The notes beneath the pieces are model-generated. The model was given only the letters and a program-made list of their open reading frames with translations, searched no databases and had not been told where the DNA came from. The position numbers and the translations under genes were made by a program. This document shows, piece by piece, positions 1-20,000 of a stretch of DNA of 20,000 bases. This DNA is from an uncultured virus (IMG/VR IMGVR_UViG_3300028591_000115). Taxonomy: Duplodnaviria > Heunggongvirae > Uroviricota > Caudoviricetes. Position 1 is the first letter of the stretch; each line of letters begins with the position of its first letter. The DNA lies in IMG/VR virus record IMGVR_UViG_3300028591_000115. One strand, written 5' to 3'.

Positions 1-47
1 TCACGAATAATAATATCATTATTAAAATCAGTTCCATAATACATCAT
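1..47 (-). CDS. 5' end of the next virion-module gene (partial; MMYYGTDFNNDIIIR...)
   Basis: ATG at 47 or 44 overlaps the TGA of the upstream gene (ATGA coupling). The frame stays open to the window edge. Confidence 0.5.
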   Translation of the reverse strand, partial: MMYYGTDFNNDIIIR

Positions 48-634: not shown

Positions 635-651
635 TTAACATCCTCCTTAGT

Positions 652-1242: not shown

Positions 1243-1271
1243 ATTAACTTTTTCTCCTTTTTCTCTATAGT

Positions 1272-1308
1272 AGAATAAGCGGGCGGCGTGTTATCACGCA
1301 CGCCCGCG
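1272..1308 (-). terminator. Probable intrinsic terminator/attenuator after the major capsid gene
   Basis: GCGGGCG-GCGTG/CACGC-A-CGCCCGC hairpin followed on the minus strand by TTATTCT. Confidence 0.6.
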
Positions 1309-1319
1309 ATCAATTTTTA

Positions 1320-2531: not shown

Positions 2532-2554
2532 TGACTTTTTCTCTCCTTTCCTTA

Positions 2555-3361: not shown

Positions 3362-3384
3362 ACTTAGCTTCCTCCTTTATAAAA

Positions 3385-4716: not shown

Positions 4717-4721
4717 TTAAC

Positions 4722-6359
4722 TCACTCCTTTCCCGCAGCTTCACGGTTAGCTATAGTTTTATCAGATTTCTATTCATTGCTTTTTTCCGGTCTGCCCATT
4801 TTTTTATCCTCGGCCGCACCCTTAATCTAAGCCTAAGCTTTATTAGTAGCAGACTAAGCGTTTGATCCAGTCTTACCACCGAGTACATCCTCACCACGTA
4901 AAGTAGAACTCATGAGAGGCGGAATCATTAATTCTTGTAATTTCATTACATTATTCTCAAAATAAGCAGTAGCATAAATAGAACTTTGTGAATGTCCAAG
5001 AGCAATCTAAGGTAACACTTTGGAGAAACCAAGTTGTGTATGCTCTTTATATAACTTAGACAATTCTTTATAATTATTAATAGTAGTTTCAAGCATATTA
5101 AAATGCAAACACCACTTTTTATTTCCTGGGAACTTATTATTTAAGATCCTAGTAAATAACTCATCAAACTCAAAAATTAAATCTCTGATACTTGCTTCAT
5201 CAACAGCACTCGCTTTCTCAAGAGCAAGATTACTATTAGAGTTAAATAGGTTTTGAGAAACACCAGCTTCATTATAAACAGTGCGCTCAACTTTTTCAAG
5301 TTCATCTCTTGTTGCTGTAGTATTCTTATCAGCAAGATCGGCAACATCTACATCTGCAAACGTTGTCATAACATCTACGCCAATAGCACGCTTCAACATC
5401 TATACTGTATTATTATGAATATCTTTTGCTTCATCAACGTCAAATATCAAATCACCATTTTTATCTAATGGTAATTTTTGAATAATGACTTTTAATAACT
5501 TCTGCATCATCTTACGACGATCCAGATCTTGCGCTTCGTCCAAGTCCAATATCTTTGAAGTAACATTTACAAGCATTGGAACATCTTGTCCAGCAATATT
5601 AATCTTAAAAGCACAATCTGGATCTAACAACCACCATGTGCCCTCAGTATATCCATTCTTTGGATTGTTCAATTTGCCCTTCTTATAAGCAATATAAGCT
5701 TCAGAAAATTCTGAAGGATACATTTTTAAAACTCTTAAACGAGTTTCAATATCCGGAAATTGTTCATCAAAAAATCTTGGATTAAATTCTACTGCTGGTC
5801 TATTACCTACTTTGAACCGAGAGCGGCAATATGCAATTGGTAACTATTGGAATGTAAAGCCATTTGAGGTTTCTATAATATAGCCATAATAGCATCCATT
5901 AAGAATTACCTGCAATGCCACATCTTGGCACAACTTTTTCACTCCTGCATGATCAAAATAATCTAGAGCTTCAGAAAACTCCTTTAAAATTTTGTCATTC
6001 TTCTTTTCATTCTCCTCGATTACATAAGGAGTAATATACCAATCATATCTATAAAGACCGGCAAAATATTTAACCAATCTTTCATACATACCACTTACTT
6101 CAAAGAAGTAATTTGATATTTCTCTTAATAAAGGATAATCTTTTCTAGCCAATGCCGCAAGAACAGCCAATTTATTATAAGTTTTCTTGCTAGTCTTCTT
6201 AATGGCACCAAGATCTAATACAGCATCATCAAGTGTCTAGAAATAATTAACTTTTACTTTTCCATAATCTACTTGACTACCATAAATGTCATGAAGTTCT
6301 GGACGTTGGACTATTGAGAAGCCTTTGGAATGGATTAAATCCTAACGATTCTATTCCAA
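4722..6359 (-). CDS. Portal protein, 545 aa with TAG=Gln
   Basis: ORF fragments 5007..5399, 5400..5723 and 5844..6170 share one frame. In-frame TAGs lie at 4770, 4827, 4833, 4854, 5007, 5400, 5844, 6237, 6342 and 6351. TTG start 7 nt after AAGGAGG; TGA stop at 4722. Lies between terminase and protease. Confidence 0.8.
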
Positions 6360-6371
6360 GCCAATCCCTCC

Positions 6372-6737
6372 TTAATATCCAGCTTTTTCCATGATATAAT
6401 CATACGAAATTAAGTTTTCATCTGTATAAGGGATTTCGATTAGATTATATTCATTTAATGCGCAGAATCTGCGCTTATTTTTATCGTTGAACTATTGACG
6501 ATAGAAACCTTGCTTTCCACCATATTTACTGGAAGGTTCAAAATGTTGTTTTCCCTAATATTCAATTAAGAAATCCACATTACCATCATCATCAAACACG
6601 CAAAAGTCAAATCTTAATGGGCGACCATTTGGACTATTTAAACCTTCGAATGATTGCTCCATGGTGAAATTGAAGCCTGCATCGCGCAATATTTCTTCAA
6701 TCTTAATCTCTCCTCTTGAAGCTCGCAACTTTGACAC
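6372..6737 (-). CDS. PD-(D/E)xK / DUF559-Vsr-like endonuclease, about 121 aa with TAG=Gln
   Basis: Carries the motif LRFDF...LIEY*GKQH, then ND..KR.FC...LIEIPY. TAGs at 6555 and 6492; TAA stop at 6372. Confidence 0.8.
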
Positions 6738-6738
6738 C

Positions 6739-8469
6739 TCAATTCATAAATAACATATCGCTAAATCTTTTTTTATTACGTTTACGTTTTTTATCTTCTT
6801 CTAATTTTATCCAATACAGACCATATTCAAAAGCAGAAAATTTATCCTTTTTAATACCTTTATTTGCTTGCTTCAAAATGATATTAACACCTTCGTTTTC
6901 TTCACGAAGATTCATCATTTCTTCCTTTAATATGGAAGTCAAAGTAAATGGTTTAAGATATTCTGCCCGTTCTTCGGGCTTCATCTCTTGACCACGCTTG
7001 GTGGCCATTAACTTAATTTTTGCAACACGCTCATCAATTAACATCTTAACTCTGCCAGCTTGCATCATTGATTGTACATTACCATGTACTTCAGTATTAA
7101 TTGGCGCGTTAGCTTTAATTATCCATAAAGCATTTTCTTCACAAACCGCAGTTCTATATTTTTTATACTCGCCTTCTTCGTCATTATCAACACCAAAATC
7201 AGCAATAAGATCTCCAGTATCAGGATCAGTTTGACCTTTTACTAAATAATCAACTAAACCAATACCAAGACCGTTACCATCAATAACAACTTTTTTGGCT
7301 TTATATTTATAATATAATTTTTTAATACGAATACATTGTTCTTCAAAATGCATATCACTTAATGGATAGATATTGACTAAACTAATTAAAGCATTTCCCG
7401 CAGTTTGAGGATTAACCTTAAACACACAAATTACTGTATCACATCCACGTCTACCAACGTCGACAGAAAGTACATAATAAGCATTTTTTGTACTACGTCC
7501 AGAAAATTCATACTCTGGTTGCTTTAATATTCTATTATGATCAAATTGCTCTGCATTAAAGAATGCATCTTCTATTGTGCCGGACCAAACAGATTCATAT
7601 TCACGTTCAAATGAAGATTCATTAAACGTACCGTCCATTTTAAGATCTCTAATAAAGTTCTTATCGAGCAAATCCATTAAAACCGGAATTCTCCAAGTAC
7701 CACCCATGACCATCGCGCGATCAGGCTTTACAATCTCCCAACACAATAATTGAATTAATTTATCATAAGCGAATGTATTCTTCCAACCTGCTGTTGTAAC
7801 ATAAATCTATGATTTATTTAATACTTCATTATCATCTTTACCACCACACGCTGCACGTCTTGAAACGTTCATCGTAGGGATAATAACTTCATTAAGAATC
7901 GTTCCATCAATACCGACGCACTCCTCCATGAGTCCGCCATGGCGGCGTTGTCCTCTCGAAGTTTCACGAGCTGCTATATTGTCCAGCACTGACCCGTTCT
8001 TAAATATGTATCTAACATAATCTTTTCCCTCCATTGTCTTGCCGCGACGCCAATCAATCTCATCGCGCAATGGTGGGATTAAATGACATAATTCTTGCAC
8101 CTTAGCTTTAATAATACTTGATGCCTATTCCTTACCACCAGATGTAACAAATAATTTTGCTCCTGGATACAGTATACAGCGAATTATTAAAATTAATGCG
8201 GCCAAGAATGATTTTGAGTAAGCACGTGGGAATACTGCGTAAGTATATTTGTAACGCATTGCCGCACGTAAGAACACTCTCTAATAAAAGAATAAATGGA
8301 AATTTTCCGGATTATTCTTTTCAAGTAAAAAATCAACAAATAAATCTGGATACTCTCGCCAGAAAGAAACCCATTTACGAGCCACAGGTATGCAAGCCCG
8401 CACACGTTCTTCTGACAAACCAATTTTATCTACTCCAGTTTTTAAGTTGAGTAAATCCTAAAGCGCCAT
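6739..8469 (-). CDS. terL: Terminase large subunit, 576 aa with TAG=Gln
   Basis: One frame through TAGs at 7807, 8125, 8281 and 8458. Contains FY*R (adenine-binding Q motif), Walker A-like PRAYSKS, RGQRRHGGLMEE (Walker B region), VTTAG coupling motif, and RNase H-like LSVDVGR ... KDKFSA. Confidence 0.92.
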
Positions 8470-9650
8470 TATTCATCATCCTCTCCGAGGAGTTCACGAA
8501 TAGTAGCTTCATCTTCTTCTTGTTCACTTTCAACGAATTCATAATGTTTTAAGAAATCATTATCATTAAGAACTTCATCCTCAATTTCTTGTAGATCTAA
8601 ATCCTCAATCTCAGTAGTTTCAGAATCTTCTTCTTTTGCTTCTTCTCTTGCCATGGTTCTAACCGCGTTCTCAATAAGATTACCAAGATTCATTTCTTCA
8701 GTAACTAGCTTATGAGTATATCCACGAAGATCAGCAAGCGTTTCATCTACACGATCTTTTGGTTCATCTGTATAATATCTTGGAATAAAGTCTTCTCTTT
8801 CACACAACAGGATAAACTCGTCAATAGCGGAAACAAATTCTCCGCTCTCTGCTTTGTTCTGCGCAGCAGTAAATTTCGCAGACTTCATAAGCGTATCATA
8901 AACTTTAGACATTTTCTGAAATCCTTCAATGTCACCAAGATCAACTAACTAATGACACTTCAAAGAAGTCTTACAAATTAATTTTAAATAATCTTCATGA
9001 GCCGGGGTAACAATATCAAATGCCGCCATCATTTCTTGGTATAATTTCTCTAACTGAACCCACTCATATGGCCTATAAGCTTTTCCCCATTTAAGTGTAA
9101 GATACTTCTTATCTTCTTCAGTTAAATCATCATCAAAGAAATCTGGGGCATTTAAATCTATAGGAGCGGCACCTGTCTATTCGGCTTCCGCAGCTTTAAA
9201 ATCTTCCGGCTTTTCTGGCATAGTACCAGTTTGAATAGCATTTTCAATTTCTTCTCCGGTATAACCCTATCGCGCCATAACTTCAGCTTTCTTCGCATTC
9301 ATCTCTTCGCGCAATCTCTCGGTATCGGCCCAAGTATATGAACTAAATTGTTTCATACGCATCTTAGATAAATAACGACCAAGAATAGTCATACCAGTTG
9401 TCTTTCTTGGATCTTTAGCATAACGATCCAATAAAGTTGTCCATTCCTCTTCAATATAAGGAACGTCAATATCTTCCAGAATCCACAAATAAGTTTTAGG
9501 ATCCCAGTTATCTACGTGTCTAGTTAAACATTTTTTACATTCAGGTAAAAACCCATCAGGATATTTATCAGTTCTTTTTGTTTGGTAAAACTGATTTTCG
9601 TCCATTGTACGATTACACGTTTTACAATACAATGTTTTTCCATCGGCCAT
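8469..9650 (-). CDS. Zn-finger protein with acidic C-terminus (candidate terminase small subunit), 393 aa with TAG=Gln
   Basis: ORFs 9267..9650 and 8469..8912 join through TAGs at 9267, 9177 and 8949. N-terminal CKTC...CKKC. Its stop overlaps the terL start. The TerS role is inferred from position only. Confidence 0.7.
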
Positions 9651-9653
9651 TTG

Positions 9654-10724
9654 TTAGCACTCCTTTTTCTTGCTATTGCGGCACTTCTTACAAATACTAT
9701 AAAATCCATCTTTACTCGTTTTATTAATACTAAAGAATTTTGAATGAGCTAATTTAACTTCGCCACACCGGCTGCATTTCTTCCACTTACCTTTTTCTAC
9801 ATAAGTGAAATACCACATTATCCATTCGTCTTGTGCCTTTTGCGCAATTAGTTTTGGAATCTTATTCCGCCACAAACTGCTTATGTATTCTATTGAGTGC
9901 GTAAATTGGAACTCTTGTTCAAGTAATGCTTGTATTTCTACGTTCTGTAATCGTTCTTGTTTATACTGAACTATGCGTCTATACATCGGAAAATCCGCTA
10001 ATGCTCTTTCTACCAGCGGCGTAAAATCCTAAATCATATACCATGTATCGCCTTCGAAATTACCTTCAGATCGTCCTTTTAATAAGGGATACAATTGAAG
10101 AATTTCGTTTATAACTCGATAATCACAGAATGAAACACCTTCATATTTAATTACAGCATTATCATTGTCATCATATTCTATCCATTCATTCCAAGGTAAT
10201 GGTGGGAACGTTTTCATACCTCTCGATAATTTAGTGAATACAATGGGACGCTTGTAAGCATTTTTTACAACATATTGGTCTTTCCGCAATTCAATTAGCG
10301 TACTTTTTATTATATACGCCGCACGTCCGGTTGCAGTCTTTTGTAACCTTTCCCAGAATTCAATACTTTCTCTGAGACGTTTTAACTACGGTATATCTTC
10401 TATGTCTTGCTTTGTGATAGTAACTTTAGGTTGAAAAATTGTATTTTTTCCATTATCAGTAATTAAATTGTAAATTCCATCTTCACCGTTCTCTAATTGA
10501 CTGACCAGACCTTCATAAGAAATTTCTCGTTTATTAATCGTTGCTAAACGATTTTCAGTAAGAATTTTCTTCTCCTTTTTCTCTTGTTTCTCCATACAAA
10601 GAACCAAGTAATCCGCTAGAGCCTCTAGATACTACTCGCTTGGGTCGGGTACTTCTAACAAGATCTATTCTACTAGTTTGCGTCTTTCTTCTGGAGAATC
10701 AATAGTATAATCTAATTGAATTAT
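9654..10724 (-). CDS. Putative sigma-like/HTH transcription regulator with C-terminal Zn finger, about 356 aa with TAG=Gln
   Basis: Three ORF fragments join through TAGs at 10029, 10386, 10632 and 10665. Has an HTH-like segment (NVEIQALLEQEF..HSIEYISSLW) and CSRC...CKKC. Start is uncertain (ATA at 10724, 9 nt after AGGAG). Confidence 0.65.
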
Positions 10725-10772
10725 ACCAATCAACTCCTTATAATGGTCTATTTGTCCCCACTTACTACACTC

Positions 10773-10801
10773 ATTATACTAAAAAATTTTATGCAAGTCA
10801 A
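10773..10801 (-). promoter_or_regulatory. sigma-A-type promoter for the recoded head/packaging operon
   Basis: TTGACT-17 bp-TATAAT on the minus strand. Confidence 0.8.
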
Positions 10802-10820
10802 CGACGTTTTTTGCCCAAAG

Positions 10821-10849
10821 TTGAAAAATATAAAAATTTATAATATAAT
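10821..10849 (+). promoter_or_regulatory. Divergent sigma-A-type promoter
   Basis: TTGAAA-17 bp-TATAAT. Confidence 0.7.
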
Positions 10850-10878
10850 TATTATGTAAAAAAAAGAGGTGTATAAAA

Positions 10879-11412
10879 ATGAAGGTATATCTTGCAGGTC
10901 CAGTAGTTACAAATGATCCTATAGTGAAACAACAAATGGAAACTTTAGAAACAACACTTAATAATATGCGCATCTATAATAGATATTCTGATATAGAAAA
11001 AGAATATGTGGAAGTCTATCGTCCAGGTAAACATAAAGTCCCTAATGCATGGGGTATTGATATGGCAACTTGGGGTCAATGTGTATTTACAATGGATGTT
11101 ATTGCTATTGATAAATGTGAATGGATGGTGCTCGCAGATTATGGTCGACAAGCCACTGCCGGCACAAGCTGGGAAGCTGGATATGCTTTTGCAAAGGGAA
11201 TTAAAATTCTTGTCGTACAGATGCCTGGTGTAGAAGAATCTAGTCTTATGACACAAGGCTGTGCCGCAAACATTTGTAAGTACGAAGATTTTATTTCTGG
11301 CATTGATTGCGATGAACGTAATTGTGCTGTATATGATGAAATTTGGGATCATAAATATGAACACTTCTTTTTTGAGCGTGGTCGTAAACCACAAGAAAGG
11401 GTGTTAAATTAA
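10879..11412 (+). CDS. Nucleoside 2-deoxyribosyltransferase / N-glycosidase family protein
   Basis: Motifs KVYLAGP, MDVIAIDKCEWMV and GTSWEAGYAFAKG (catalytic Glu) match the NDT family. Confidence 0.85.
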   Translation: MKVYLAGPVVTNDPIVKQQMETLETTLNNMRIYNRYSDIEKEYVEVYRPGKHKVPNAWGIDMATWGQCVFTMDVIAIDKCEWMVLADYGRQATAGTSWEAGYAFAKGIKILVVQMPGVEESSLMTQGCAANICKYEDFISGIDCDERNCAVYDEIWDHKYEHFFFERGRKPQERVLN

Positions 11413-11771
11413 TGTCAAAATATTTTGAAGAAGAACTAAAACGTAAAAATATAGAATATTATATTCCGCGCATGGAAAATATTTTAGCAGTACGAGAAGG
11501 TCAGGTGAACAATATGATACAATGTTTTGAATGTTTTTATAGCATGTTTGGTAAATGCCCGGTTGATGGACACAAAGGCAATGCCGCATGTTTACAATTA
11601 CAAAAATCTTATTTTGATATGTCGCGCAAAGAATTAGAAGAAGTTACTGAAGAAGAATATAAAAAAGCTTTGCAAAATGCTGCGCAAATGTATCATATAA
11701 GAATGGATTATATTGCAAATATTTTTAAAGGAAAAGAGGAACATACTGATGAAGAAATATCAATTCATTGA
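11412..11771 (+). CDS. Hypothetical protein, 119 aa
   Basis: TAATG coupling to the upstream gene; intact ORF. Confidence 0.7.
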   Translation: MSKYFEEELKRKNIEYYIPRMENILAVREGQVNNMIQCFECFYSMFGKCPVDGHKGNAACLQLQKSYFDMSRKELEEVTEEEYKKALQNAAQMYHIRMDYIANIFKGKEEHTDEEISIH

Positions 11772-11976
11772 TGAGCATCCTACGGCAGGTTGTTTTACTG
11801 CTATTGTTCTTGTAGCATTAGCTATTTTTTTTGGGCCTTGGATTGTAATGCATGCATGGACTCTTATCGCAGTTAATATGTTTGGAGCTCCGGCAATGTC
11901 GTACTGGACCGCCTTCTTTGGCACCTGGGCCGCGCATATAATTTTTTCCAGAATGGATGTTAGAAAAGACGATTAA
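11749..11976 (+). CDS. Small membrane protein
   Basis: ATG at 11749 after GAGG; two hydrophobic segments. Confidence 0.7.
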   Translation: MKKYQFIDEHPTAGCFTAIVLVALAIFFGPWIVMHAWTLIAVNMFGAPAMSYWTAFFGTWAAHIIFSRMDVRKDD

Positions 11977-11989
11977 GGAGTTTCCCGCA

Positions 11990-12718
11990 ATGGATATGGA
12001 TACAATGTTAGGTTTATCTTTTGGCATCGTTGGTGGATGTATATTATTGGCATTAGTTCCTTGGTGGCTGTTGTTAGCTGTGGGAGTAGGATGTGTACTT
12101 CCATGGTACAAGAGATGGCGTTTCAAATGGATCGAGCCCGCAGAGGTTAAAAAGTTTATAGACTTTTCCAACATTGGGTATGGAACAATAGGAGATCTTG
12201 AAAAGATGATGTTCATCGGAATGTCAGAGGATAAAACTATTCGTTGGTGGTACTGGCGTGGCGATGATGGAGTCAAGGATTATCTGGTGCCGCAAGCTGT
12301 TGATGATGGTCAGATATATTGGAATAAAAAATTAGAGATTAAGAATCCTGTGCTATTGAAACATTTGCACGGTTTTATGGATATGGGCAATGAATGGCCT
12401 GCTTTTTATAAAATGACCAATAAGCAGATTGAGCATGTGCGGCAAATGCATAAAAAACAAGAGAAGAAGCAGAAAAAAGGAAATGCTAACATGATCAAGC
12501 ATCCTTGTTCTTTTGCGCCCGAGGATATAAAGGTTGTAGCGAGTGATTTGCCGCGAGCCGATTATGCGACCGTAGACCTGGACAAGAATAATATGAATGC
12601 AGCAACTGCGGCGATGGCTTCAGATGCTGAACTTTTGGAATTACAAAAAGCCGTGAAGGAACTTGAAGAAGAAATTCATGGTAGATGCCCTACTCTTGAA
12701 ATTAATGTAAATCCGTGA
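11990..12718 (+). CDS. Membrane-anchored hypothetical protein
   Basis: ATG at 11990 after AAGGAG (alternative start 11957); N-terminal hydrophobic hairpin. Confidence 0.7.
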   Translation: MDMDTMLGLSFGIVGGCILLALVPWWLLLAVGVGCVLPWYKRWRFKWIEPAEVKKFIDFSNIGYGTIGDLEKMMFIGMSEDKTIRWWYWRGDDGVKDYLVPQAVDDGQIYWNKKLEIKNPVLLKHLHGFMDMGNEWPAFYKMTNKQIEHVRQMHKKQEKKQKKGNANMIKHPCSFAPEDIKVVASDLPRADYATVDLDKNNMNAATAAMASDAELLELQKAVKELEEEIHGRCPTLEINVNP

Positions 12719-13538: not shown

Positions 13539-13638
13539 AAAAAAATTGTTACAAAAGTATTAAACATTCAAAAAAGGGGTTGTAATGCAACCCCTTTTGT
13601 GGTATACTCTTATCAGATCAAGAGAGGAGGACACCACG

Positions 13639-14040
13639 ATGACTTACTACTGGGACATGGACGGAGTGCTCGCCAACTTCCACAAGGCTTACGCTAATGA
13701 CCGGGCTATCGCCCTCAAGCGTGAAGCGATGGCGAACCTTGAGCCCTTCATGGCCAACGTGGTTACCGTCCGGAATCTGATGGCTGAAGGCCACACCTGC
13801 TACATCCTCACCAAGGCCGCCAACGCTGAAGGCGCTGAAGGCAAGGTCGAGTGGCTCGCCAAGTACATCCCCGAGATGGACGAGGCCCACACCATCATCA
13901 TCACCAAGGGCCGCAAGGTTGACAACATCCGTGAGGATGGAATCCTGGTGGATGATGATGCCGCCAACACCCGGCAGTGGGAAAAGGCCGGACACAAGGC
14001 CATCCTCCTCACCACCAAGGGCGAGGCCGTCCGGATCTGA
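13639..14040 (+). CDS. HAD-superfamily phosphatase, 5'(3')-deoxyribonucleotidase-like (paralog 1)
   Basis: Motif I WDMDGVLANF, motif II ILT, K..WL, motif IV ILVDD; GGAGG RBS. Confidence 0.85.
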   Translation: MTYYWDMDGVLANFHKAYANDRAIALKREAMANLEPFMANVVTVRNLMAEGHTCYILTKAANAEGAEGKVEWLAKYIPEMDEAHTIIITKGRKVDNIREDGILVDDDAANTRQWEKAGHKAILLTTKGEAVRI

Positions 14041-14696: not shown

Positions 14697-14846
14697 ATGA
14701 GCAAGTGGTACACAGTCAATCATGGAGCAATCACACTGGAGCAGACCTTCAACACCTACGAGGAAGCCGAGCTGATGGCCATGGCCATGGCAGTGACTGA
14801 CCAGCACGTGTGGCATGTGGAGATGGTGATCGGTTGGGATCGGTGA
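14697..14846 (+). CDS. Hypothetical early protein, 49 aa
   Basis: Own promoter, GAGGAG RBS. Confidence 0.7.
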   Translation: MSKWYTVNHGAITLEQTFNTYEEAELMAMAMAVTDQHVWHVEMVIGWDR

Positions 14847-14865
14847 CCCCAGCCTTTTCATTTGC

Positions 14866-14892
14866 ACGCGCGCCAGCGGGCCTGGCGCGCGT
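14866..14892. repeat. GC-rich inter-cassette hairpin H3
   Basis: ACGCGCGCCAG-CGGGC-CTGGCGCGCGT. Confidence 0.85.
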
Positions 14893-14985
14893 TATTGCGC
14901 TATAGAACAGGATCCAGAAAAATTTATTTCGGGAAATGTGAAAAAAAGTGTTGACTTCTGATCCCGTTTCTGCTATACTATCATC

Positions 14986-15042
14986 AGTGAGAGAGAGTAG
15001 CAACTCTTGAAGGGCGCTCGACAGAGCCAGAGGTGGCCCACC
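14986..15042 (+). ncRNA. Small structured RNA, family copy C (short form)
   Basis: Promoter 14951-14979 has no ORF before the next promoter. Core ACTCTT..GGGC-GCTC-GACA-GAGC-N8-GCCC matches copies A and B. Confidence 0.6.
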
Positions 15043-15134
15043 AAAAAAAACTGCTACAAATTTTGAAAAAACCCTTGACAGGATCAGCAAAAGGTGCTAT
15101 ACTCTTATCAGATCAAGAGAGGAGCGGATGAACG

Positions 15135-15401
15135 ATGATGAACTACGAAGTCAAGAGCTACAGCTTCTTCCGGACGCCCAATGGTGGAGCCGATTATGTC
15201 AATGATGGAAAGCTGTTCCACCTGTCCGCTGAAATGCTGAATTGCCTGCTGAATCAGTATAAGGTCATGGGCTTCAAAGTGATCTTTGACAACGACAGCT
15301 TCGTGAGCGTTGCCAAAGTCACCAACGAAATTGAAGTGTTCAGCGCTCGCATGGATGAAATGGCGCGCAACCTGCGGGAAGCTCGCGCAGAAAATAAATA
15401 A
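15135..15401 (+). CDS. Hypothetical early protein, 88 aa
   Basis: Own promoter, GAGGAG RBS, TAA stop. Confidence 0.8.
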   Translation: MMNYEVKSYSFFRTPNGGADYVNDGKLFHLSAEMLNCLLNQYKVMGFKVIFDNDSFVSVAKVTNEIEVFSARMDEMARNLREARAENK

Positions 15402-15482
15402 AAAAAATTCAAAAAAAGGGTTGACAAAAAACCCGATCCATGTTAGAATAAATCATCGAAAGAAGCAAGGGAGGACGAAACG

Positions 15483-15710
15483 ATGATCCGTGAAAGCAAG
15501 ATGACCTTCAAGCAGGTGGGTGCCCAGTCCGTTGACATTTACTGCCAGACCCGGGATGACAATGGCCCGTGGCAGAAGCAGGGGATCATCCCGATCCGGG
15601 GCACCGTGGAAGAGGTCATGGCCCAGCAGATGGCCAATCAGGAGCGGTGGGGCTGGACTCCCTACGACATCGAGGACGGCGACACCCTCACCTTCTGGAA
15701 GGAGTTCTGA
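15483..15710 (+). CDS. Hypothetical early protein, 75 aa
   Basis: Own promoter, GGAGG RBS. Confidence 0.8.
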   Translation: MIRESKMTFKQVGAQSVDIYCQTRDDNGPWQKQGIIPIRGTVEEVMAQQMANQERWGWTPYDIEDGDTLTFWKEF

Positions 15711-15770
15711 TCGCTCCAGAAGAATAAAAAAAGTGTTGACAAACTGATTGACCTATGATACAATAACAAT

Positions 15771-15832
15771 GTCGGGAGGGGTTACTCAATCAACCCTCAG
15801 AAGTAGCCGTAAAAAGTAGGGAACCTCCCGAC
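15771..15832 (+). ncRNA. Structured 5' leader (closed stem enclosing a probable pseudoknot)
   Basis: GTCGGGAGG (15771-79) pairs with CCTCCCGAC (15824-32). Inside, GGTTACT/AGTAGCC and CCCT/AGGG cross each other. Confidence 0.55.
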
Positions 15833-15859
15833 CACTTAAAACAATAGGAGGAAACAAAA

Positions 15860-16081
15860 ATGATGACCATGACAAGACAATTCACAATCGGCGATCTAGC
15901 ACTGTTCAACCTCATGCAGGATGTGCGGAACATGGTAGATGATTTCACCGCTGATAAGTTCGGCCCAAAGGTCAAAATGACCGCTGAAGAATTCGCCGAT
16001 CTGATGGATCACATGGCGAAAAGCGCAAGGAACCTGGCCCAGGCCGAAGCCGTAAAGGCTGAACGCTCCAAGCGCACCTAA
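15860..16081 (+). CDS. Hypothetical early protein, 73 aa
   Basis: AGGAGG RBS, TAA stop, followed by a hairpin and U-tract. Confidence 0.8.
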   Translation: MMTMTRQFTIGDLALFNLMQDVRNMVDDFTADKFGPKVKMTAEEFADLMDHMAKSARNLAQAEAVKAERSKRT

Positions 16082-16136
16082 CACAGACGCAGCCCCCTCT
16101 CGCTTCTCTCCTTTCAGGCGGGAGGGTTTCTTTTTG

Positions 16137-16165
16137 GCCGACCGCGCGCGACCGGCGCGGTCGGC
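16137..16165. repeat. GC-rich inter-cassette hairpin H4 (loop inverted)
   Basis: GCCGACCGCGC-GCGACCG-GCGCGGTCGGC-ATTT; the loop reads CGGTC on the minus strand. Confidence 0.8.
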
Positions 16166-16210
16166 ATTTGAGTTGTAAAGGGGTCTCAGGGTTTGTGCTT
16201 GCGAAAGGGT

Positions 16211-16328
16211 AAAAAAAAGAGCGGGGATCGGACTCCCGCAATGCCATCGGCTTTTGTTTTGCTGGGCTCGCCCGGCTCCGTGAGGAGCGCCCTAGAGGAG
16301 TGCCGGTGGATCACTACCATCTCCCTGT
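16211..16328 (-). ncRNA. Small structured RNA, family copy A
   Basis: Minus-strand promoter at 16335-16363, no ORF, ends in a hairpin plus U-tract. Aligns end to end with 19646-19752 with compensatory changes. Confidence 0.8.
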
Positions 16329-16334
16329 GACTAT

Positions 16335-16363
16335 AAGATATCATACTTTGCTCTATTTGTCAA
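16335..16363 (-). promoter_or_regulatory. sigma-A promoter of the inverted ncRNA cassette
   Basis: TTGACA-17 bp-TATCTT with a TG extension and upstream A-tracts on the minus strand. Confidence 0.75.
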
Positions 16364-16496
16364 CTACTTTTTGCAATTTTCTTCAACTTTTTTTTGAAGA
16401 AAATAAATTGTTACAATTTTGTTAAATCTGCGAAAAAGGGGTTGTATTCTGATCCGATCTATGGTAATATAATGGTGCGAAAGGAAGGTGCTCTGA

Positions 16497-16931
16497 ATGA
16501 AGATCTGGTTCGACATGGATGGAACGATCGCCGATCTGTACGGCGTGACTGATTGGCTCCCGGCTCTGATCGCCGAAGATACCCGCCCTTACGAAGTGGC
16601 GAAGGGGATCGGCAATCTCGCTCTGATCGCTCGGCTCCTCAACAAGGTGCAGGCGAACGGTCACGAGATTGGAATCATCTCTTGGACGGCTAAAGCCGGA
16701 ACCGCCGGATACAACGCTCGGATTTACGCCGCAAAGGTTGGTTGGCTCGGCAAGCACCTTCCTTCCGTAAACTGGGACACGATCCTTGTCAAGCCCTACG
16801 GAACTGACAAGCGGGTTGCCACTGGTGGCGGGATCCTCTTCGATGATGAGGAACCGAACCGGATCGGATGGGGCGAAGGCGCCCACACTCCTGCCGAGAT
16901 CGTGGAAGTCCTCAAGGCTCTTACCAGATAA
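16497..16931 (+). CDS. HAD-superfamily phosphatase, 5'(3')-deoxyribonucleotidase-like (paralog 2)
   Basis: Motif I FDMDGTIADL, IIS, K..WL, ILFDD. Confidence 0.85.
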   Translation: MKIWFDMDGTIADLYGVTDWLPALIAEDTRPYEVAKGIGNLALIARLLNKVQANGHEIGIISWTAKAGTAGYNARIYAAKVGWLGKHLPSVNWDTILVKPYGTDKRVATGGGILFDDEEPNRIGWGEGAHTPAEIVEVLKALTR

Positions 16932-17015
16932 GACAATGTCAAATCTGGTAAACTAAAACTGACGCAGCACCCCTGACCTTCCTCCTTGGGTTGGGGGTTT
17001 TCCTTATTTTGTGGG

Positions 17016-17043
17016 CTGCGCGCCGGCGGTCGCCTGCGCGCAG
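17016..17043. repeat. GC-rich inter-cassette hairpin H5
   Basis: CTGCGCGC-CGGCGGTCGCCT-GCGCGCAG. Confidence 0.8.
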
Positions 17044-17161
17044 TATTTCGGCTAATTAGGAGGATCAGAAAAAATTTTTTTGAAAAAGTTGTGAAAAAAG
17101 GGTTGACAGATTATCCCTTATCGTGTATAATGACTACAGTAAGAAACAGGAGGTAACCACC

Positions 17162-17335
17162 ATGAAGCTGATCGCCACCGTCAACAATCTCCCCGCCAAC
17201 CTCTCCAAGTACGCTTGGATCACCGCTCGCGCTGTCGATGGCGAGCTCTGGTTCTACGGCGCTTGGTACGATGAGGATGGCGCTCGGGCTCAGGCTCGGG
17301 AGATCGACGGCATCGCCCTCAAGGTTGAGGGCTGA
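17162..17335 (+). CDS. Hypothetical early protein, 57 aa
   Basis: Own promoter, AGGAGGT RBS. Confidence 0.8.
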   Translation: MKLIATVNNLPANLSKYAWITARAVDGELWFYGAWYDEDGARAQAREIDGIALKVEG

Positions 17336-17402
17336 TGCTGAAAAAATTCAGCATCTATCCTGTTATAATAAGAGTGTAAGAAAGAGAGAGGAGTAAACGA
17401 AA

Positions 17403-17699
17403 ATGACTACCTACACCGATCTGATCCGCAAGATGGATAATCCCCGCTACGTTGGCAAGATGGACAAACCGGTCAAGCGGGTTAATAAAGTCTATGATCT
17501 GTTTATTGATGGATCTTACATCAAGACCGAATACCACAAGAACAACGATCAGCTTGCTATTGGTCGGCTGATGGATCACGCTCGATACTACATCGACAAG
17601 ATGAACCGGCTCGGCGGTGATCCCGCCGGTGAGATTGAGATCCGGATCACTGACAGGGATGGAAAAATTTCTTTCAAGAAATTTTCCAAAAACGCTTGA
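17403..17699 (+). CDS. Hypothetical early protein, 98 aa
   Basis: GAGGAG RBS; the TGA stop lies inside the TTGACA of the next promoter. Confidence 0.75.
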   Translation: MTTYTDLIRKMDNPRYVGKMDKPVKRVNKVYDLFIDGSYIKTEYHKNNDQLAIGRLMDHARYYIDKMNRLGGDPAGEIEIRITDRDGKISFKKFSKNA

Positions 17700-17754
17700 C
17701 AGGATCAAGCAAACCTGCTATAATGTAACCATCAAGAGAGAGGAGCGAAAGACA

Positions 17755-18030
17755 ATGACAAGCAAGAAATTCGCAGGACACGAAAAGGCCGCCGCTAAGA
17801 TCAACTACTACGAAGACGGCTCCATGGAACTGGTGAGCTACAAGACCGTGGTTGCCACGGTTGACCCCGAAGGTTGGGTGCACCTCAACGGCCTGTACAG
17901 CATGACCACGATCAAGCACATCGGTTGGTTCGCCCGGCTGATCGGTACGGACTACCACACGCTGAAAGGCCTCATGGTCGACCACAAGGACATGAACCTC
18001 AACACCGGCGAGGTGGTGGATTGGGAGTAA
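17755..18030 (+). CDS. Hypothetical early protein, 91 aa
   Basis: Own promoter, GAGGAG RBS, TAA stop inside the terminator loop. Confidence 0.8.
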   Translation: MTSKKFAGHEKAAAKINYYEDGSMELVSYKTVVATVDPEGWVHLNGLYSMTTIKHIGWFARLIGTDYHTLKGLMVDHKDMNLNTGEVVDWE

Positions 18031-18049
18031 TCCCAATCCTTTTTCTTTT
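18018..18049 (+). terminator. Intrinsic terminator
   Basis: GGATTGGGA-GTAA-TCCCAATCC followed by TTTTTCTTTT. Confidence 0.85.
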
Positions 18050-18051
18050 GA

Positions 18052-18080
18052 GCCGGTCGTTGCTGGGCGCGACGACCGGC
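18052..18080. repeat. GC-rich inter-cassette hairpin H6
   Basis: GCCGGTCGTTGC-TGGGC-GCGACGACCGGC-ATTT. Confidence 0.8.
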
Positions 18081-18192
18081 ATTTAGATTTTGGTAGGGTC
18101 TGCATAATTATACAATCGCATTGCATAAAAAAAGTGCTTGACAGCCGATCCTGTATCTGGTACAATAGTGGTGGAAAGGAAGGTGCTACCCC

Positions 18193-18627
18193 ATGACTGA
18201 ACTGACTGCGATCCGTGACTTCGTTGAGCTGATCACCGGCATCCGCCCTGTGATCGCACGCAAGCGTGACGATTGGTCTGTTATTTCCGAAGCCGACTCC
18301 ATGCGGATGACCGTCCCCACGGTCTACACCGGCTCCGAAACTGACAAGGCTTTCCGCAAGGACTTTGTGAGCCGTTGCCCTCTTGCCCGGGGCTTCGCTG
18401 ATGTTACCATTAGCATCCTGCACGAGATGGGGCACTTCGCCACCCGTGACAACTTCAACAGCGATGTGTACACCGCACAAGTTGAGGAAGCCGGCGCCGA
18501 CATGGAAAAATACATGGCGATCCCTTACGAGATGCTCGCCACCTGTTGGGCGATCTGTTGGCTGATGGATCCGGACAACCGGAAAGAAGCCAAAAATTTT
18601 GAGAAAAATTTCTTCGGAAGGGGTTGA
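18193..18627 (+). CDS. HExxH zinc-metallopeptidase-like early protein
   Basis: ILHEMGHF motif with a downstream Glu (PYE..A); own promoter and RBS. Confidence 0.7.
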   Translation: MTELTAIRDFVELITGIRPVIARKRDDWSVISEADSMRMTVPTVYTGSETDKAFRKDFVSRCPLARGFADVTISILHEMGHFATRDNFNSDVYTAQVEEAGADMEKYMAIPYEMLATCWAICWLMDPDNRKEAKNFEKNFFGRG

Positions 18628-18657
18628 CAAACCGCCCCGGATCTGATACAATGATCA

Positions 18658-18941
18658 TGTTGAAAGGAGATGGTTCCGATGGGGATCGAAGCCCCCGGCC
18701 CGCAGGCAGGTGCGAAGCGGGCCACATGGGCGGGAGGTAAGCACCCAGCCGGTTGAGGAGAGGGCCCCCAAGACCGGCAAGCGAACCTTGGCAAGTGAAT
18801 GGAGGATGGCCACCGCCTTAAGAAGCCCCAGGGAGGCTGAAGCCGATTGCGAGAGCGCAAGTTGCTCGTGTAAGACCTTCAAACTCGGGAAACGAGGATG
18901 CCCCGAACCCTGTTGATACAGAGCCGAACGGCTCTTTTTTT
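18658..18941 (+). ncRNA. Large structured RNA 1 (~240-nt core plus terminator)
   Basis: Lies between promoter 18624-18652 and terminator 18920-18941. 5' GGTTC..GGGG-ATC pairs with 3' GAT-G-CCCC-GAACC. Several internal stems and no convincing ORF. Confidence 0.75.
18920..18941 (+). terminator. Intrinsic terminator
   Basis: AGAGCC-GAAC-GGCTCT followed by a T run. Confidence 0.85.
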
Positions 18942-18945
18942 ATTG

Positions 18946-18974
18946 GCCGAGCGTGCGCGGGCCACACGCTCGGC
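18946..18974. repeat. GC-rich inter-cassette hairpin H7
   Basis: GCCGAGCGTG-CGCGGGCCA-CACGCTCGGC-ATTT. Confidence 0.8.
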
Positions 18975-19065
18975 ATTTGGGATCAGCTAAGGGTTCAGAA
19001 AAAAAATTTTGCAAATCGGCCAAAAAAGTGTTGACAAATGGCTCCCGTTATGGTATTCTATACTC

Positions 19066-19516
19066 ACCGGAAGGGGTTAGAGCCCGGGGCCACGGGTGCC
19101 AAAGCCGATGGAAGGAGCTACGCGCGGAGCGCCCCGCGCGCGGAAGAACCCGGGGGGTTGGAGTAGCGCACCAAGGGCCGAAGGCCAAGGCCGGATCTCC
19201 CGGGGCCGAAACTACTACGTTGAGGGTAGGCAGAGCCGGAACATCGGGTAGCCGAGCCGGTGGGGCCCATGAGAGCCTGTAAGACCTCCCCAATGAAACG
19301 ACCGCAGGCCGAAGTCCTACTCTGCGGTATACGGGGCGAGGAACCCCGGGGTCCGAAAGGGCTCAAATGTGCGGGCAACAACAGGGGAGCGTCTGGGACC
19401 CCGGGGCCAGTAGGATGGACGCAAAGGGTGGTAACCTGCCCGACGAAGAGCCGGGCTTGAGACCTCAAGTGCGAGGACGAATAGCCAACAGAGGGATCAG
19501 CTGATCCCCCTTTTTT
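19066..19516 (+). ncRNA. Large structured RNA 2 (~380-nt core plus terminator)
   Basis: Lies between promoter 19031-19059 and terminator ~19491-19516. AGCCCGG (19081-87) pairs with CCGGGCT (19451-57). Many internal helices, a GAAA tetraloop, and no RBS-led ORF. Confidence 0.75.
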
Positions 19517-19523
19517 CATTTGA

Positions 19524-19553
19524 GCTGGTCGCGGGCGGCCGCGCGCGACCAGT
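19524..19553. repeat. GC-rich inter-cassette hairpin H8
   Basis: GCTGGTCGCG-GGCGGCCGCG-CGCGACCAGT. Confidence 0.8.
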
Positions 19554-19645
19554 TTTCACGCTTCAGAGAGGATCCAGAAAAAAAGATTTGCAAAAGGCAG
19601 AAAAAAAGTGTTGACATCGGCTCCCGGATGTGGTATTATACTGTC

Positions 19646-19752
19646 AGAGGGAGAAGGCAGTGAACCGGCTGACACTCCTAAAGGGCGCCGAAAGGCAAGT
19701 GCGAGCCCCGCAAAACAAAAGTCACCGGCACGGGCGGGTCCGAACCGCCCAC
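19646..19752 (+). ncRNA. Small structured RNA, family copy B
   Basis: Promoter 19611-19639, no ORF, paralog of 16211-16328 (minus strand). Confidence 0.8.
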
Positions 19753-19818
19753 AAAAAAGTTGTTGACAGATCATAAGGTCTGTGCTATAATGAAGCCATC
19801 AAGAGAAGGGAGCTAACC

Positions 19819-20000
19819 ATGATGAATACCGAAGTTATCAAGGCAATGCAGGGCAACAAGAAGGAACATAAGGCGCGCAAGTGGTGGCACAAGAATGGTT
19901 ACAAGGTCATGCGCGTGATCCTGTTTCCGTTCTGGATCGGAAGTATCCTGATCAACAAGTGCCGGGCATGGCTCAACAATCGGCAGGAATGGAGCGAAGA
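19819..20000 (+). CDS. Hypothetical early protein (partial, basic with a hydrophobic stretch)
   Basis: Promoter 19763-19791, GGGAG RBS, MMNTEVIKAMQGNKKEHKARKWW... open to the window end. Confidence 0.7.
   Translation, partial: MMNTEVIKAMQGNKKEHKARKWWHKNGYKVMRVILFPFWIGSILINKCRAWLNNRQEWSE

Follow-up and report, generated by a model that had tools for sequence, protein, structure and literature searches.

A family of pseudoknotted small RNAs, each copy preceded by a predicted promoter, in a gut phage of ruminants

Results

Three copies of a small RNA in a mosaic phage region

The DNA analyzed here (hereafter the window, a stretch of 20,000 nucleotides) comes from a gut phage of ruminants whose whole viral record measures 41 kb. 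It corresponds to the GC-rich end of the phage, where genes are small, and contains three copies of a small RNA, designated A, B and C. PHROG matches to portal and terminase proteins, together with the IMG/VR record, bear out the phage setting proposed in a first-pass annotation. The portal gene, a late gene of this phage, has in-frame TAG codons. The region around the copies is a mosaic of recombining cassettes flanked by promoters. Metatranscriptome contigs span the entire window, although such contigs reveal neither the ends of small RNAs nor transcript levels. The features of the three copies, and two larger conserved RNAs beside them, are as follows.

14951-14979, plus strand: predicted copy C promoter, TTGACT, 17-nt spacer, TATACT, with TG (10/12 matches)
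14986-15057, plus strand: copy C RNA, without terminator; next promoter at 15075
14989-14993 and 15004-15008, plus strand: copy C P1, GAGAG with CUCUU
14997-15002 and 15052-15057, plus strand: copy C knot helix, GUAGCA with UGCUAC
15012-15015 and 15036-15039, plus strand: copy C P2, GGGC with GCCC; P3, GCUC-GACA-GAGC, at 15016-15027
15040-15051, plus strand: copy C linker
16335-16363, minus strand: predicted copy A promoter, -35 TTGACA (16363-16358), 17-nt spacer, TG, -10 TATCTT (16340-16335) (10/12 matches)
16211-16328, minus strand: copy A RNA, predicted start near 16328, pseudoknot core, then terminator
16321-16325 and 16296-16300, minus strand: copy A P1, GGGAG with CUCCU, backed by family covariation
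16302-16309, minus strand: copy A knot 5' strand in the P1 loop, CCACCGGC, partner of GCCGAUGG
16264-16292, minus strand: copy A inserted P2 region, GGGC (16289-16292) with GCCC (16264-16267)
16275-16288, minus strand: copy A P3 within P2, GCUCC-UCAC-GGAGC, plus a 3' bulge
16252-16263, minus strand: copy A A-rich linker from P2 to the knot 3' strand, AGCAAAACAAAA
16244-16251, minus strand: copy A knot 3' strand, GCCGAUGG
16221-16239, minus strand: copy A terminator hairpin, loop GUCCGAU; U8 run at 16211-16220
18653-18941 and 19060-19515: larger conserved RNAs
19611-19639, plus strand: predicted copy B promoter, TTGACA, 17-nt spacer, TATTAT, with TG (11/12 matches)
19646-19752, plus strand: copy B RNA
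19649-19653 and 19675-19679, plus strand: copy B P1, GGGAG with CUCCU
19665-19673 and 19721-19728, plus strand: copy B knot helix, CCGGCUGAC with GUCACCGG
19683-19686 and 19705-19708, plus strand: copy B P2, GGGC with GCCC; P3, GCC-GAAA-GGC, at 19687-19696
19709-19720, plus strand: copy B linker
19732-19750, plus strand: copy B hairpin, loop GUCCGAA, without U run

As the first-pass annotation had claimed, each copy has its own predicted promoter, a near-consensus sigma-70-type element in which TG precedes the -10 hexamer in all three cases. The three copies, likewise recognized at that stage as a non-coding family, are true paralogues. A and B are 71-74% identical over 79-107 aligned nucleotides (E 1.9e-7 in the 41-kb record, about 1.5e-9 with approximately 1 Mb of loci). 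No direct BLAST link joins C to A or B; the same places in two related loci (L012 and L009) are matched both by C (82%, E 4e-11) and by positions 31-76 of B (E 7e-5), and a single sequence profile recovers all three copies. Relatives turned up in 7 of the 80 related viral records and at 21 metagenome loci, which gave 23 distinct sequences, and the family is kept across diverged phages. A pattern scan of bacterial and archaeal genomes for cellular counterparts returned 15 loci, none of which is a member according to the model.

Variation among three A-type sequences affects 1 of 109 columns in the RNA, 7 of 17 in the promoter spacer and 13 of 32 in the downstream segment. A counterpart of copy B in another locus (L013) is identical at 108 of 109 positions, the difference being a 1-nt deletion in the linker. 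Judged by the A-type comparison, selection is shown to act on the RNA itself.

A covarying H-type pseudoknot

RNAs of this family fold as an H-type pseudoknot. The predicted 5' end lies 3-5 nt ahead of P1 (GGGAG/CUCCU), whose loop pairs with a strand that follows the A-rich linker about 45 nt downstream. Inserted between the two, in the long third loop of the knot, is the P2/P3 hairpin, in most cases with a GNRA tetraloop at its tip. The pseudoknot core spans about 75-90 nt; RNAs that continue into a terminator reach about 110-120 nt in full.

RNAalifold, run on 18 members, finds P1, P2 and P3 unaided. When the knot is added to these 18 sequences, pairing extends to 93.5% of 306 cells (84.3% in shuffles), eight pairs are changed on both sides (4.0 in shuffles) and the covariation score reaches 0.296 (0.124 in shuffles); none of 500 shuffles attains any of these values, whereas controls with slid strands pair at 52% at most. 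Compensatory changes are found in four helices. The knot helix exists in at least eight compensated versions, which include CCACCGGC/GCCGAUGG in A and CCGGCUGAC/GUCACCGG in B, the pairings from which a covarying crossing helix had been proposed, as well as GUGGC/GCCAC, AAGGC/GCCUU, GUAGC/GCUAC, GGAGCA/UGCUCC, UGAGCA/UGCUCA and GAAGC/GCUUC. P2 reads AGGC/GCCU in five members and is reversed in another (GCC../..GGC, L092). The A-type and B-type rows alone (five rows, two lineages) have two column pairs changed on both sides, a number reached by 244 of 500 shuffles and therefore not significant by that measure; significance comes with the wider family. Altogether, we regard it as highly probable that this is a real structured RNA family.

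Two structural details had to be revised. Of the two pairings offered for P1, GGAG/CUCC stands and AGUG/CACU does not, as AGUG is absent from shorter members and P1 covaries (GGGUG/CACCU in L086, GAGAG/CUCUU in C). Copy C, described earlier as the first stem plus the GGGC module only, has a knot helix of its own (GUAGCA/UGCUAC) and consequently ends near 15057, not at 15042. A candidate second helix, P4 (GGUG/CACC or GCG/CGC), overlaps the 3' strand of P2 and also covaries, a hint of two alternative conformations, which are more usual in a switch than in a passive decoy.

No match to known RNA classes

A search with Rfam 15 gave no match at the gathering score in the window and six related loci, in agreement with the first reading, which had recognized no known family in it. 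At E values up to 10, the segment 14800-20000 gave chance-level matches only, none of them on A or B. ARAGORN detected no tRNA or tmRNA gene in the window or the rest of the 41-kb record. A, B and C are best explained as members of a phage-specific small RNA family without Rfam match.

Three candidate identities were rejected. The copies differ by 1-, 3-4- and 11-nt indels and conserve no frame, contrary to expectations for a small protein-coding gene; moreover, the sole AUG of copy A abuts GGGAG, leaving no spacing for a ribosome-binding site. A transcription-terminating riboswitch is at odds with the separation of the knot 3' strand from the terminator stem and with the lack of a gene after A. 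An HDV-like ribozyme does not fit the single A or AA found between the knot 5' and P1 3' strands in 23 of 23 members.

Predicted transcript ends and cassette behavior

In 13 of the 23 members the last element is a terminator-type hairpin with a U run after it. The stems of the terminal hairpins, which most copies have, vary while their apical loops are kept: nine members have a G-ACAGGUAAGAC-C loop and five have GUCCGA. UCCGA recurs in the A and B types and UAAGA in other members, and both fit U-N-N-G-A, a pattern that marks T-loops; these loops may be T-loop-like, as the first-pass annotation suggested for GUCCGA. The terminal hairpin reported for both A and B needs qualification, being a terminator with a U8 run in A and lacking the U run in B, where the next promoter follows directly. 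Seven of the 23 members have no terminator and run directly into the next promoter or cassette; together with the B type, these make nine members that might just as well be the 5' portions of longer transcripts. The units that lack a terminator precede differing payloads.

Copy A stands alone on the minus strand, where it converges on the end of a gene of the plus strand and has no gene downstream. In L012 and L013, a family member occupies the position of copy A, upstream of and divergent from an NT5C-like gene; in L013, a protein-coding gene without terminator lies behind the same promoter in the slot of copy C. These arrangements show the units to be autonomous, promoter-flanked cassettes. 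The GGGAG..AAGGCA start of the pseudoknot RNAs also heads a larger conserved RNA (LR2 type) of relatives. At least one mRNA leader opens with the related GGGAGG, and a leader of this kind lies in the window. P1 may therefore be something that transcripts of this phage have at their 5' ends in general.

Discussion

We infer from these data that the RNAs are transcribed, act in trans and bind protein. That each is an autonomous product acting in trans seems somewhat more probable than the contrary; that it serves as a protein decoy or sponge is a possibility to which we give less than even weight. Our preferred model is tentative: a stable RNA acting in trans by its folded shape, most likely as a protein-titrating decoy. 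A strong sigma-70-type promoter would drive a free-standing RNA with P1 near its 5' end and the A-rich stretch lying along P1. Closed at both ends, by P1 at the 5' and by the terminal hairpin at the 3', the RNA would be a stable product, which would bind and titrate a protein, be it one of the host (an RNA-binding factor or a nuclease) or one of the phage. The RNA does not appear to regulate a neighboring gene. Expression at the onset of infection and nuclease resistance, both suggested in the first-pass annotation, are possible further traits. Several findings weigh against the model. Neighboring proteins include no RNA-binding, toxin or defense matches; strong family matches are confined to 7 of the 80 related records and absent from the 13 records at least 90% complete; nine members may be portions of longer transcripts; the 5' start is shared with a larger RNA and, in related form, with a leader; and the covarying P4 candidate is more in keeping with a switch.

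An element acting in cis on its own transcript, or on the RNA polymerase making it, could stabilize the RNA against 5'-end-dependent decay or confer put-like or EAR-like resistance to terminators. Its constant location at the predicted transcript start, the seven members without terminator before the next promoter, the missing U run in B and the sharing of the GGGAG and GGGAGG starts with larger RNAs and a leader all suit such a module. We nonetheless judge it unlikely. Copy A, like its counterparts at the same position, points toward the 3' end of a gene that converges on it, so that read-through would yield antisense RNA only; downstream payloads vary among members; the loops of the terminal hairpins are conserved, as though they stayed part of the product; and no Rfam antitermination family matches. 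Furthermore, the protein gene that L013 carries in the same promoter slot also lacks a terminator, indicating that absent terminators are normal in this region. Functionless, decaying duplicates of promoter and leader segments would be at home in a mosaic of recombining promoter-flanked cassettes, and the 5' part does resemble the Shine-Dalgarno-containing leaders of neighboring genes; compensatory changes in four helices, a near-invariant RNA beside variable flanks and persistence across diverged phages make this the most improbable explanation of all. Self-cleaving or otherwise catalytic RNA is scarcely more credible: the order P1 5', knot 5', P1 3', hairpin, linker, knot 3' resembles that of HDV-like and pistol ribozymes, but P3/L3/P1.1, as found in HDV-like ribozymes, could not be accommodated in the 1-2 nt between the knot 5' and P1 3' strands, and none of the ribozyme families gives a match at E values up to 10.

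Several riboswitch aptamers (preQ1-II, SAM-II) are also built as a pseudoknot in which a hairpin is embedded and unpaired nucleotides are conserved. A ligand-binding aptamer, working as a switch in the manner of a riboswitch or as a free sponge that takes up a small molecule (a signaling nucleotide, for instance), would account for P2 and candidate P4 being mutually exclusive while both covary, and for the terminator hairpin directly after 13 of 23 members. Yet there is nothing to control downstream of copy A, the knot strand and terminator do not overlap and hence form no evident antiterminator, and the best riboswitch match, to SAM-II, reaches 19 bits where the gathering score is 44 (E 4.6) and lies in another register; we hold this reading to be quite improbable. 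A special case of the decoy is an RNA mimicking a type III antitoxin against a host ToxN/CptN-like abortive-infection ribonuclease. Phage-made antitoxin mimics exist, and Rfam contains an antitoxin-RNA model such as ToxI. The pseudoknot fold and A-rich loop typical of type III antitoxins are present, in the same topology (P1 of 5 bp, first loop of 2-4 nt, second stem of 5-8 bp, A-rich last loop). However, Tandem Repeats Finder detected no tandem direct repeats of about 34-45 nt in 14800-20000, the core, with its inserted hairpin, measures 75-90 nt and not 34-45 nt, nothing in Rfam matches around the copies at E up to 10, and H-type knots that have A-rich loops are generic. Neighboring proteins have no Pfam, PHROG or PADLOC match to ToxN, CptN or TenpN, so no toxin gene lies nearby, although a phage-borne mimic would need none. 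Judged by eye, the RNA has no sequence likeness to the CptI repeat (PMC4627078). This special case appears improbable to us.

More speculatively, and with little confidence, the pseudoknot RNAs could belong to an RNA-based toolkit for host takeover along with the two larger RNAs. The motif GUAAGACC occurs in both larger RNAs and in the terminal hairpins of nine members from relatives; A and B of the window carry GUCCGA in its place, and C has no terminal hairpin. If so, shape-specific RNAs made from the strongest promoters would bind one another or common protein targets, reprogramming host RNA metabolism, translation or defense (as anti-defense decoys, for example) before the late genes are read.

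Comparison with known systems

Phi29 packaging RNA and HK022 put RNA, both transcribed from early promoters of phages, work by way of their structure, the former having covarying loop-loop complementarity. They differ from the present family in fold and genome type and show no sequence or model match; put RNAs, in addition, act in cis upstream of operons, which copy A does not fit. PreQ1-II and SAM-II share the H-type knot and A-rich strand, and preQ1-II has a hairpin before the 3' knot strand, but neither gives an Rfam match here, copy A controls no gene and, unlike in riboswitch aptamers, the knot overlaps neither a Shine-Dalgarno sequence nor a terminator. HDV-like ribozymes also have a fold beginning at the 5' end and two crossing helices with a hairpin between; P3/L3/P1.1 are absent here, as is any Rfam match.

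A survey of IMG/VR viruses lists 8495 candidate structured RNAs as 'DNAVirus_X' motifs (PMC10690425), the same type of object from the same source collection, and the family may already be an unnamed entry among them. A motif search of six supplementary files of that survey gave no match, and the main-text passages covered describe no such motif.

The CptI antitoxin of Eubacterium rectale, one of the gut Firmicutes, folds as an H-type pseudoknot of 45 nt whose first loop is short and whose A-rich loop occupies the minor groove of stem 1 (PMC4627078). A single CptI unit suffices to neutralize the toxin, and CptI works by binding protein (PMC4627078), as we propose for this family. CptI units lie in tandem repeats beside the toxin gene, and the toxin processes them, whereas here the units are single and carry the P2/P3 insert. 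Both have the H-type knot, short first loop, A-rich last loop and a promoter of their own, predicted in the present case.

Three related RNAs, each behind its own promoter

The first-pass annotation had proposed a three-copy small RNA family with a covarying pseudoknot. When the window was read directly, all three sequences were found in place:

16328-16211, minus strand: copy A
19646-19752: copy B
14986-15057: copy C

The likeness between A and B is significant (E 1.9e-7 in the 41-kb record, about 1.5e-9 against 1 Mb). Copy C is joined to them via intermediates, since the same sites in two related loci, L012 and L009, match both C (82%, E 4e-11) and B (E 7e-5). Each copy does have a promoter of its own immediately upstream, scoring 10-11/12 and carrying an extended -10. 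No Rfam family reached its gathering score in the window, as the annotation had anticipated, and nothing meaningful appeared on copies A, B and C at E values up to 10. ARAGORN found no tRNA or tmRNA in the window, and the phage GenBank collection yielded no DNA match to positions 14800-20000. Membership of the HDV-like ribozymes, pistol-like ribozymes, SAM-II and tRNA-like RNAs was considered and rejected. Single-sequence folding z-scores were ordinary (0.19, -0.88 and -1.26), which is expected of a pseudoknot.

Three A-type sequences from different contigs vary in only 1 of 109 columns within the RNA, as against 7 of 17 in the promoter spacer and 13 of 32 in the downstream flank. The copies differ from one another by indels of 1, 3-4 and 11 nt, ruling out a conserved reading frame.

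RNA sequencing runs with this stretch are labelled sheep or bovine gut. Metatranscriptome contigs from four sheep-gut runs (from at most two samples and at most two studies) were compared with the whole window. Many match the phage at 99% identity or more, along the entire window and including the late genes; such contig coverage carries no transcript ends, strand or level, and DNA carry-over may contribute to it. The long contigs among those listed do not cross copy A, stopping at 16088 and resuming at 16377.

Relatives of the three copies

The NT5C-like protein (5'-deoxynucleotidase family) encoded beside copy A (16497-16931) was used as a seed and led to 78 related viral loci, many on contigs 130-190 kb long. 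BLAST and profile searches placed family members in 4 of the 78. A covariance model (R1) was built from 8 sequences on a structure comprising a 5' helix (P1) and an inserted hairpin (P2 and P3). Run across whole records, it matched 7 of 80 strongly (E below 1e-6), while signals elsewhere were weak (15-20 bits); the 13 records of at least 90% completeness include no strong match.

Scanning metagenome contigs with a sequence pattern yielded 62 loci, of which R1 accepted 21 (E ≤5.7e-13), matched 3 weakly (E 0.004) and left 38 unmatched. Once two loci from the window's own record had been excluded and 6 duplicates removed, the distinct set numbered 23, in which 18 have the shorter, C-like length and the rest are A-type (3) or B-type (2). 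Applied to bacteria and archaea, with one genome for each species, the same pattern gave 15 loci, none a member by the model; the best of these (20 bits, E 0.001) is identical to the weak match of three microbial-mat loci. This weak element (20.2 bits with R1), shared by L101, L129 and L150 from microbial-mat metagenome and by L162, a bacterial genome-bin contig, probably represents an unrelated element, conserved and compatible with the search pattern. A viral scan with GAGCCCNGCAAAACAAAAG hit one locus, within unrelated sequence and seemingly by chance, and a looser viral pattern hit none; both scans may omit the window's own record.

A pseudoknot supported by covariation

For the 18 shorter members, RNAalifold predicted precisely the set P1, P2 and P3. 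The crossing (knot) helix, in which the P1 loop pairs with the strand past the A-rich linker, was added to these and pairing was counted on the 18 sequences.

Pairing in the 18 shorter members, knot helix included (observed; shuffled mean; shuffles reaching the observed value)
Paired cells, of 306: 93.5%; 84.3%; 0 of 500
Pairs altered on both sides: 8; 4.0; 0 of 500
Covariation score: 0.296; 0.124; 0 of 500

Pairing dropped to 52% or less when the 3' partners were shifted by 1-3 columns. Misalignment of L092, L139 and L103 by MAFFT accounts for some unpaired cells, and the knot pairing of L103 is doubtful. The knot is the most variable helix, with at least 8 compensated versions, a different one in each of the window's copies A, B and C. 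P1 occurs also as GGGUG/CACCU and GAGAG/CUCUU, and P2 as AGGC/GCCU, with wobble pairs in L091 and a flipped GCC/GGC in L092. With the A and B types taken by themselves, pairing reaches 96% of cells, yet just two column pairs are altered on both sides, too few for significance with two lineages; gap placement masks a third compensated pair. The covarying pseudoknot originally drawn from A and B was a correct inference on thin evidence, significance being reached with the 18-sequence family. An uninterrupted knot helix of at least 5 bp forms in 16 of 22 cognate combinations (one of the 23 members was lost in parsing) and in 22% of 412 non-cognate strand pairs, a contrast kept modest by the GC end that the knot versions have in common.

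Architecture of the pseudoknot RNAs, 5' to 3'
1: 3-5 unpaired nt at the 5' end
2: P1 5' strand
3: spacer, 11 nt long in A and B and 2-4 nt in the others
4: knot 5' strand
5: A or AA
6: P1 3' strand
7: UAAA
8: P2 and P3; most members have a GNRA tetraloop here, and the 3' bulge measures 8 nt
9: A-rich linker of 10-12 nt
10: knot 3' strand

Three positions of the bulge could further pair with the three nucleotides following P2 (candidate helix P4: GGU/ACC in C-like, GCG/CGC in B-like members). In this candidate 94% of cells pair and two pairs covary; its hairpin would have the P2 3' strand as loop. By our reading of pseudoknot geometry, P4 would be incompatible with a full P2. It may represent an alternative conformation, or the two lineages may differ here by descent.

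Beyond the core, members end in various ways.

3' ends of the 23 distinct members
Hairpin whose apical G-ACAGGUAAGAC-C is conserved while the stems covary, U run present in 8: 9
A-type hairpin, loop GUCCGAU, then U8: 3
B-type hairpin (GUCCGAA loop) lacking a U run, next promoter after it: 2
Plain terminator: 1
No hairpin, next promoter directly: 7
Continuing into GC-rich sequence: 1

Among the loci compared, every occurrence of ACAGGTAAGACC lies 3' of a family core.

More distant RNAs with the same plan and other inserts were seen in L007, L008, L041, L016 and L065: a promoter, a 5' GGGAG/CUCCC helix, a loop paired to a strand past an A-rich stretch, and a terminator. R1 finds no match in their records at E ≤0.1 (L041 reaches only 15.5 bits, E 0.12). 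A descriptor scan for the architecture gave 13 matches in 80 loci vs 0-2 in controls; 5 of the 13 have AT-rich sequence and are probably plain leaders or chance matches, and the bulged B type is missed by the scan. The family probably extends beyond the 23 sequences counted.

Genomic setting

Portal, terminase and tail-related matches to phage protein (PHROG) profiles lie on the minus strand in the first 10 kb of the window, all sampled words of which recur in a 41-kb IMG/VR record of estimated 23% completeness. G+C content changes abruptly, from 33-42% in positions 1-12000 (structural genes) to 48-56% from 13 kb on, and the GC-rich part extends about 10 kb past the window (locus L003, 4000-14000). 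It holds small plus-strand genes with near-consensus TTGACA-17-TATAAT promoters, and also RNAs, among them copies A, B and C. By analogy only, this part may be labelled early.

The portal gene (5007-6170, minus strand) is broken into three reading frames by in-frame stops, all TAG (5846, 5402 and 5009), and consecutive pieces match consecutive stretches of one portal profile. The late genes thus seem to read TAG as an amino acid. The GC-rich small-gene part is free of TAG breaks of this kind, and the 41-kb record holds no suppressor tRNA. Also in the GC-rich part are three NT5C-like paralogues (window 13585-14040 and 16497-16931; L003 9835-10281, minus strand). A further gene, at 10879-11412, is nucleoside deoxyribosyltransferase-like. 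Hairpins about 30 nt long and GC-rich, with ATTT or TTTC after each, recur between a terminator and the next promoter, placed like punctuation:

14864-14897: GC-rich hairpin
16137-16165: GC-rich hairpin
17013-17045: GC-rich hairpin
18052-18080: GC-rich hairpin
18945-18975: GC-rich hairpin
19524-19555: GC-rich hairpin

Relatives have CCGGCC-rich elements at similar places.

Copy A is the sole minus-strand unit of its neighbourhood and converges with the end of the gene at 15860-16081. At its position L012 and L013 have a C-like member, upstream of and divergent from the NT5C-like gene, and L007 a more distant variant with the same P1 and a GCCAC/GUGGC knot. Window and L013 are related by mosaic blocks (73-97% identity) with breakpoints at promoters. 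Behind copy C's promoter, L013 (3470-3960, compared with window 14951-15110) carries a protein gene of about 125 codons, and one metatranscriptome contig links 19040 to 19786 with 13 other letters, skipping a large RNA and copy B. The region therefore consists of cassettes recombining at promoters, in which the RNA is a payload equivalent to a gene product. Since the L013 gene likewise lacks a terminator ahead of the next promoter, missing terminators are uninformative. Copy B is identical at 108 of 109 positions between window and L013, but this forms part of a 490-nt tract at 94% identity and is not specific to the RNA.

The 163-aa protein of the gene after copy B matched nothing in Pfam or PADLOC; its N-terminal stretch is hydrophobic by eye, giving it a look unlike that of a toxin. 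As phage ncRNA arrays adjoining UG27 enzymes are described in a preprint, a reverse transcriptase was sought among the neighbouring proteins and none was found.

The leader of the gene at 15860 (15767-15859) begins with GUCGGGAGG, paired with CCUCCCGAC about 50 nt downstream, the pairing strand being followed by an A-rich stretch and a ribosome-binding site. A comparable GUCGGGAGG start occurs in L016 (plus strand, about 4450), where loop and tail pair over 7 bp.

Two larger conserved RNAs

Two longer GC-rich units in the same part of the window hold no convincing gene:

19060-19515: about 450 nt; promoter 19031-19059, terminator 19493-19508
18653-18941: about 290 nt; promoter 18624-18652, terminator 18920-18935

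The core of the longer unit (from about 19217) is 77-87% conserved in several relatives, where it begins directly after a promoter with ACAGGGUGAGGGAAGGCA, a start resembling that of the pseudoknot RNAs. This unit includes GAGAGYCNGUAAGACC and GGUCCGAAA, and an RNA-library contig covers 18947-19552. Rfam gave no match to it, nor to five relatives at E up to 1. The shorter unit, also without an Rfam match, includes GCGCAAGUUGC..GUAAGACC, which recurs in L008, L139 and L006; L009 matches it at 76% over 111 nt.

Possible function

Altogether, the data establish the structure, selection and autonomy of the pseudoknot RNAs. A helix a few nucleotides from the 5' end together with a 3' hairpin is the classic build of long-lived bacterial RNAs (5' stabilisers such as the ompA leader), and the same two elements would render the pseudoknot RNA stable. 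The conserved unpaired nucleotides, tetraloop and terminal loops could allow recognition by shape, and long single-stranded seeds for mRNA pairing are absent. On the strength of these features, we prefer to read the product as a stable RNA that acts in trans and binds a protein. The rival readings are that the RNA acts in cis as a 5' module, that it is a ligand aptamer or switch, or that it is a ribozyme.

In conclusion, this is a real phage small-RNA family whose structure has good covariation support and for which a described counterpart was not found. To our knowledge, a job has been assigned to only a few of the small RNAs that phages encode, and hardly any are known from large uncultured rumen phages. 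The pseudoknot RNAs provide a compact, covariation-supported fold in several copies per genome behind near-consensus promoters, in a phage with in-frame TAG in a late gene; the two larger, family-less conserved RNAs that adjoin add interest. Counter-defence is mostly a field of proteins. Should the RNA act as a decoy, with a host defence or RNA-handling protein as its target, that field would gain a counter-measure consisting of RNA alone; should it bind a ligand or switch conformation, it would represent a new aptamer class. Either way, its small size permits direct testing and it merits bench work.

The literature searched contained no description of this motif; it may already stand as an anonymous entry among the 8495 unnamed candidate RNAs catalogued from the same viral collection (PMC10690425). 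The closest worked example for the protein-binding reading is the CptI antitoxin of a gut Firmicute, an H-type knot of 45 nt whose A-rich loop lies in the stem 1 minor groove, a single unit of which is enough to neutralise the toxin (PMC4627078). Repeats, size, sequence and gene context all speak against membership of the CptI class, so the comparison is limited to function: by analogy, the pseudoknot RNAs may work like CptI.
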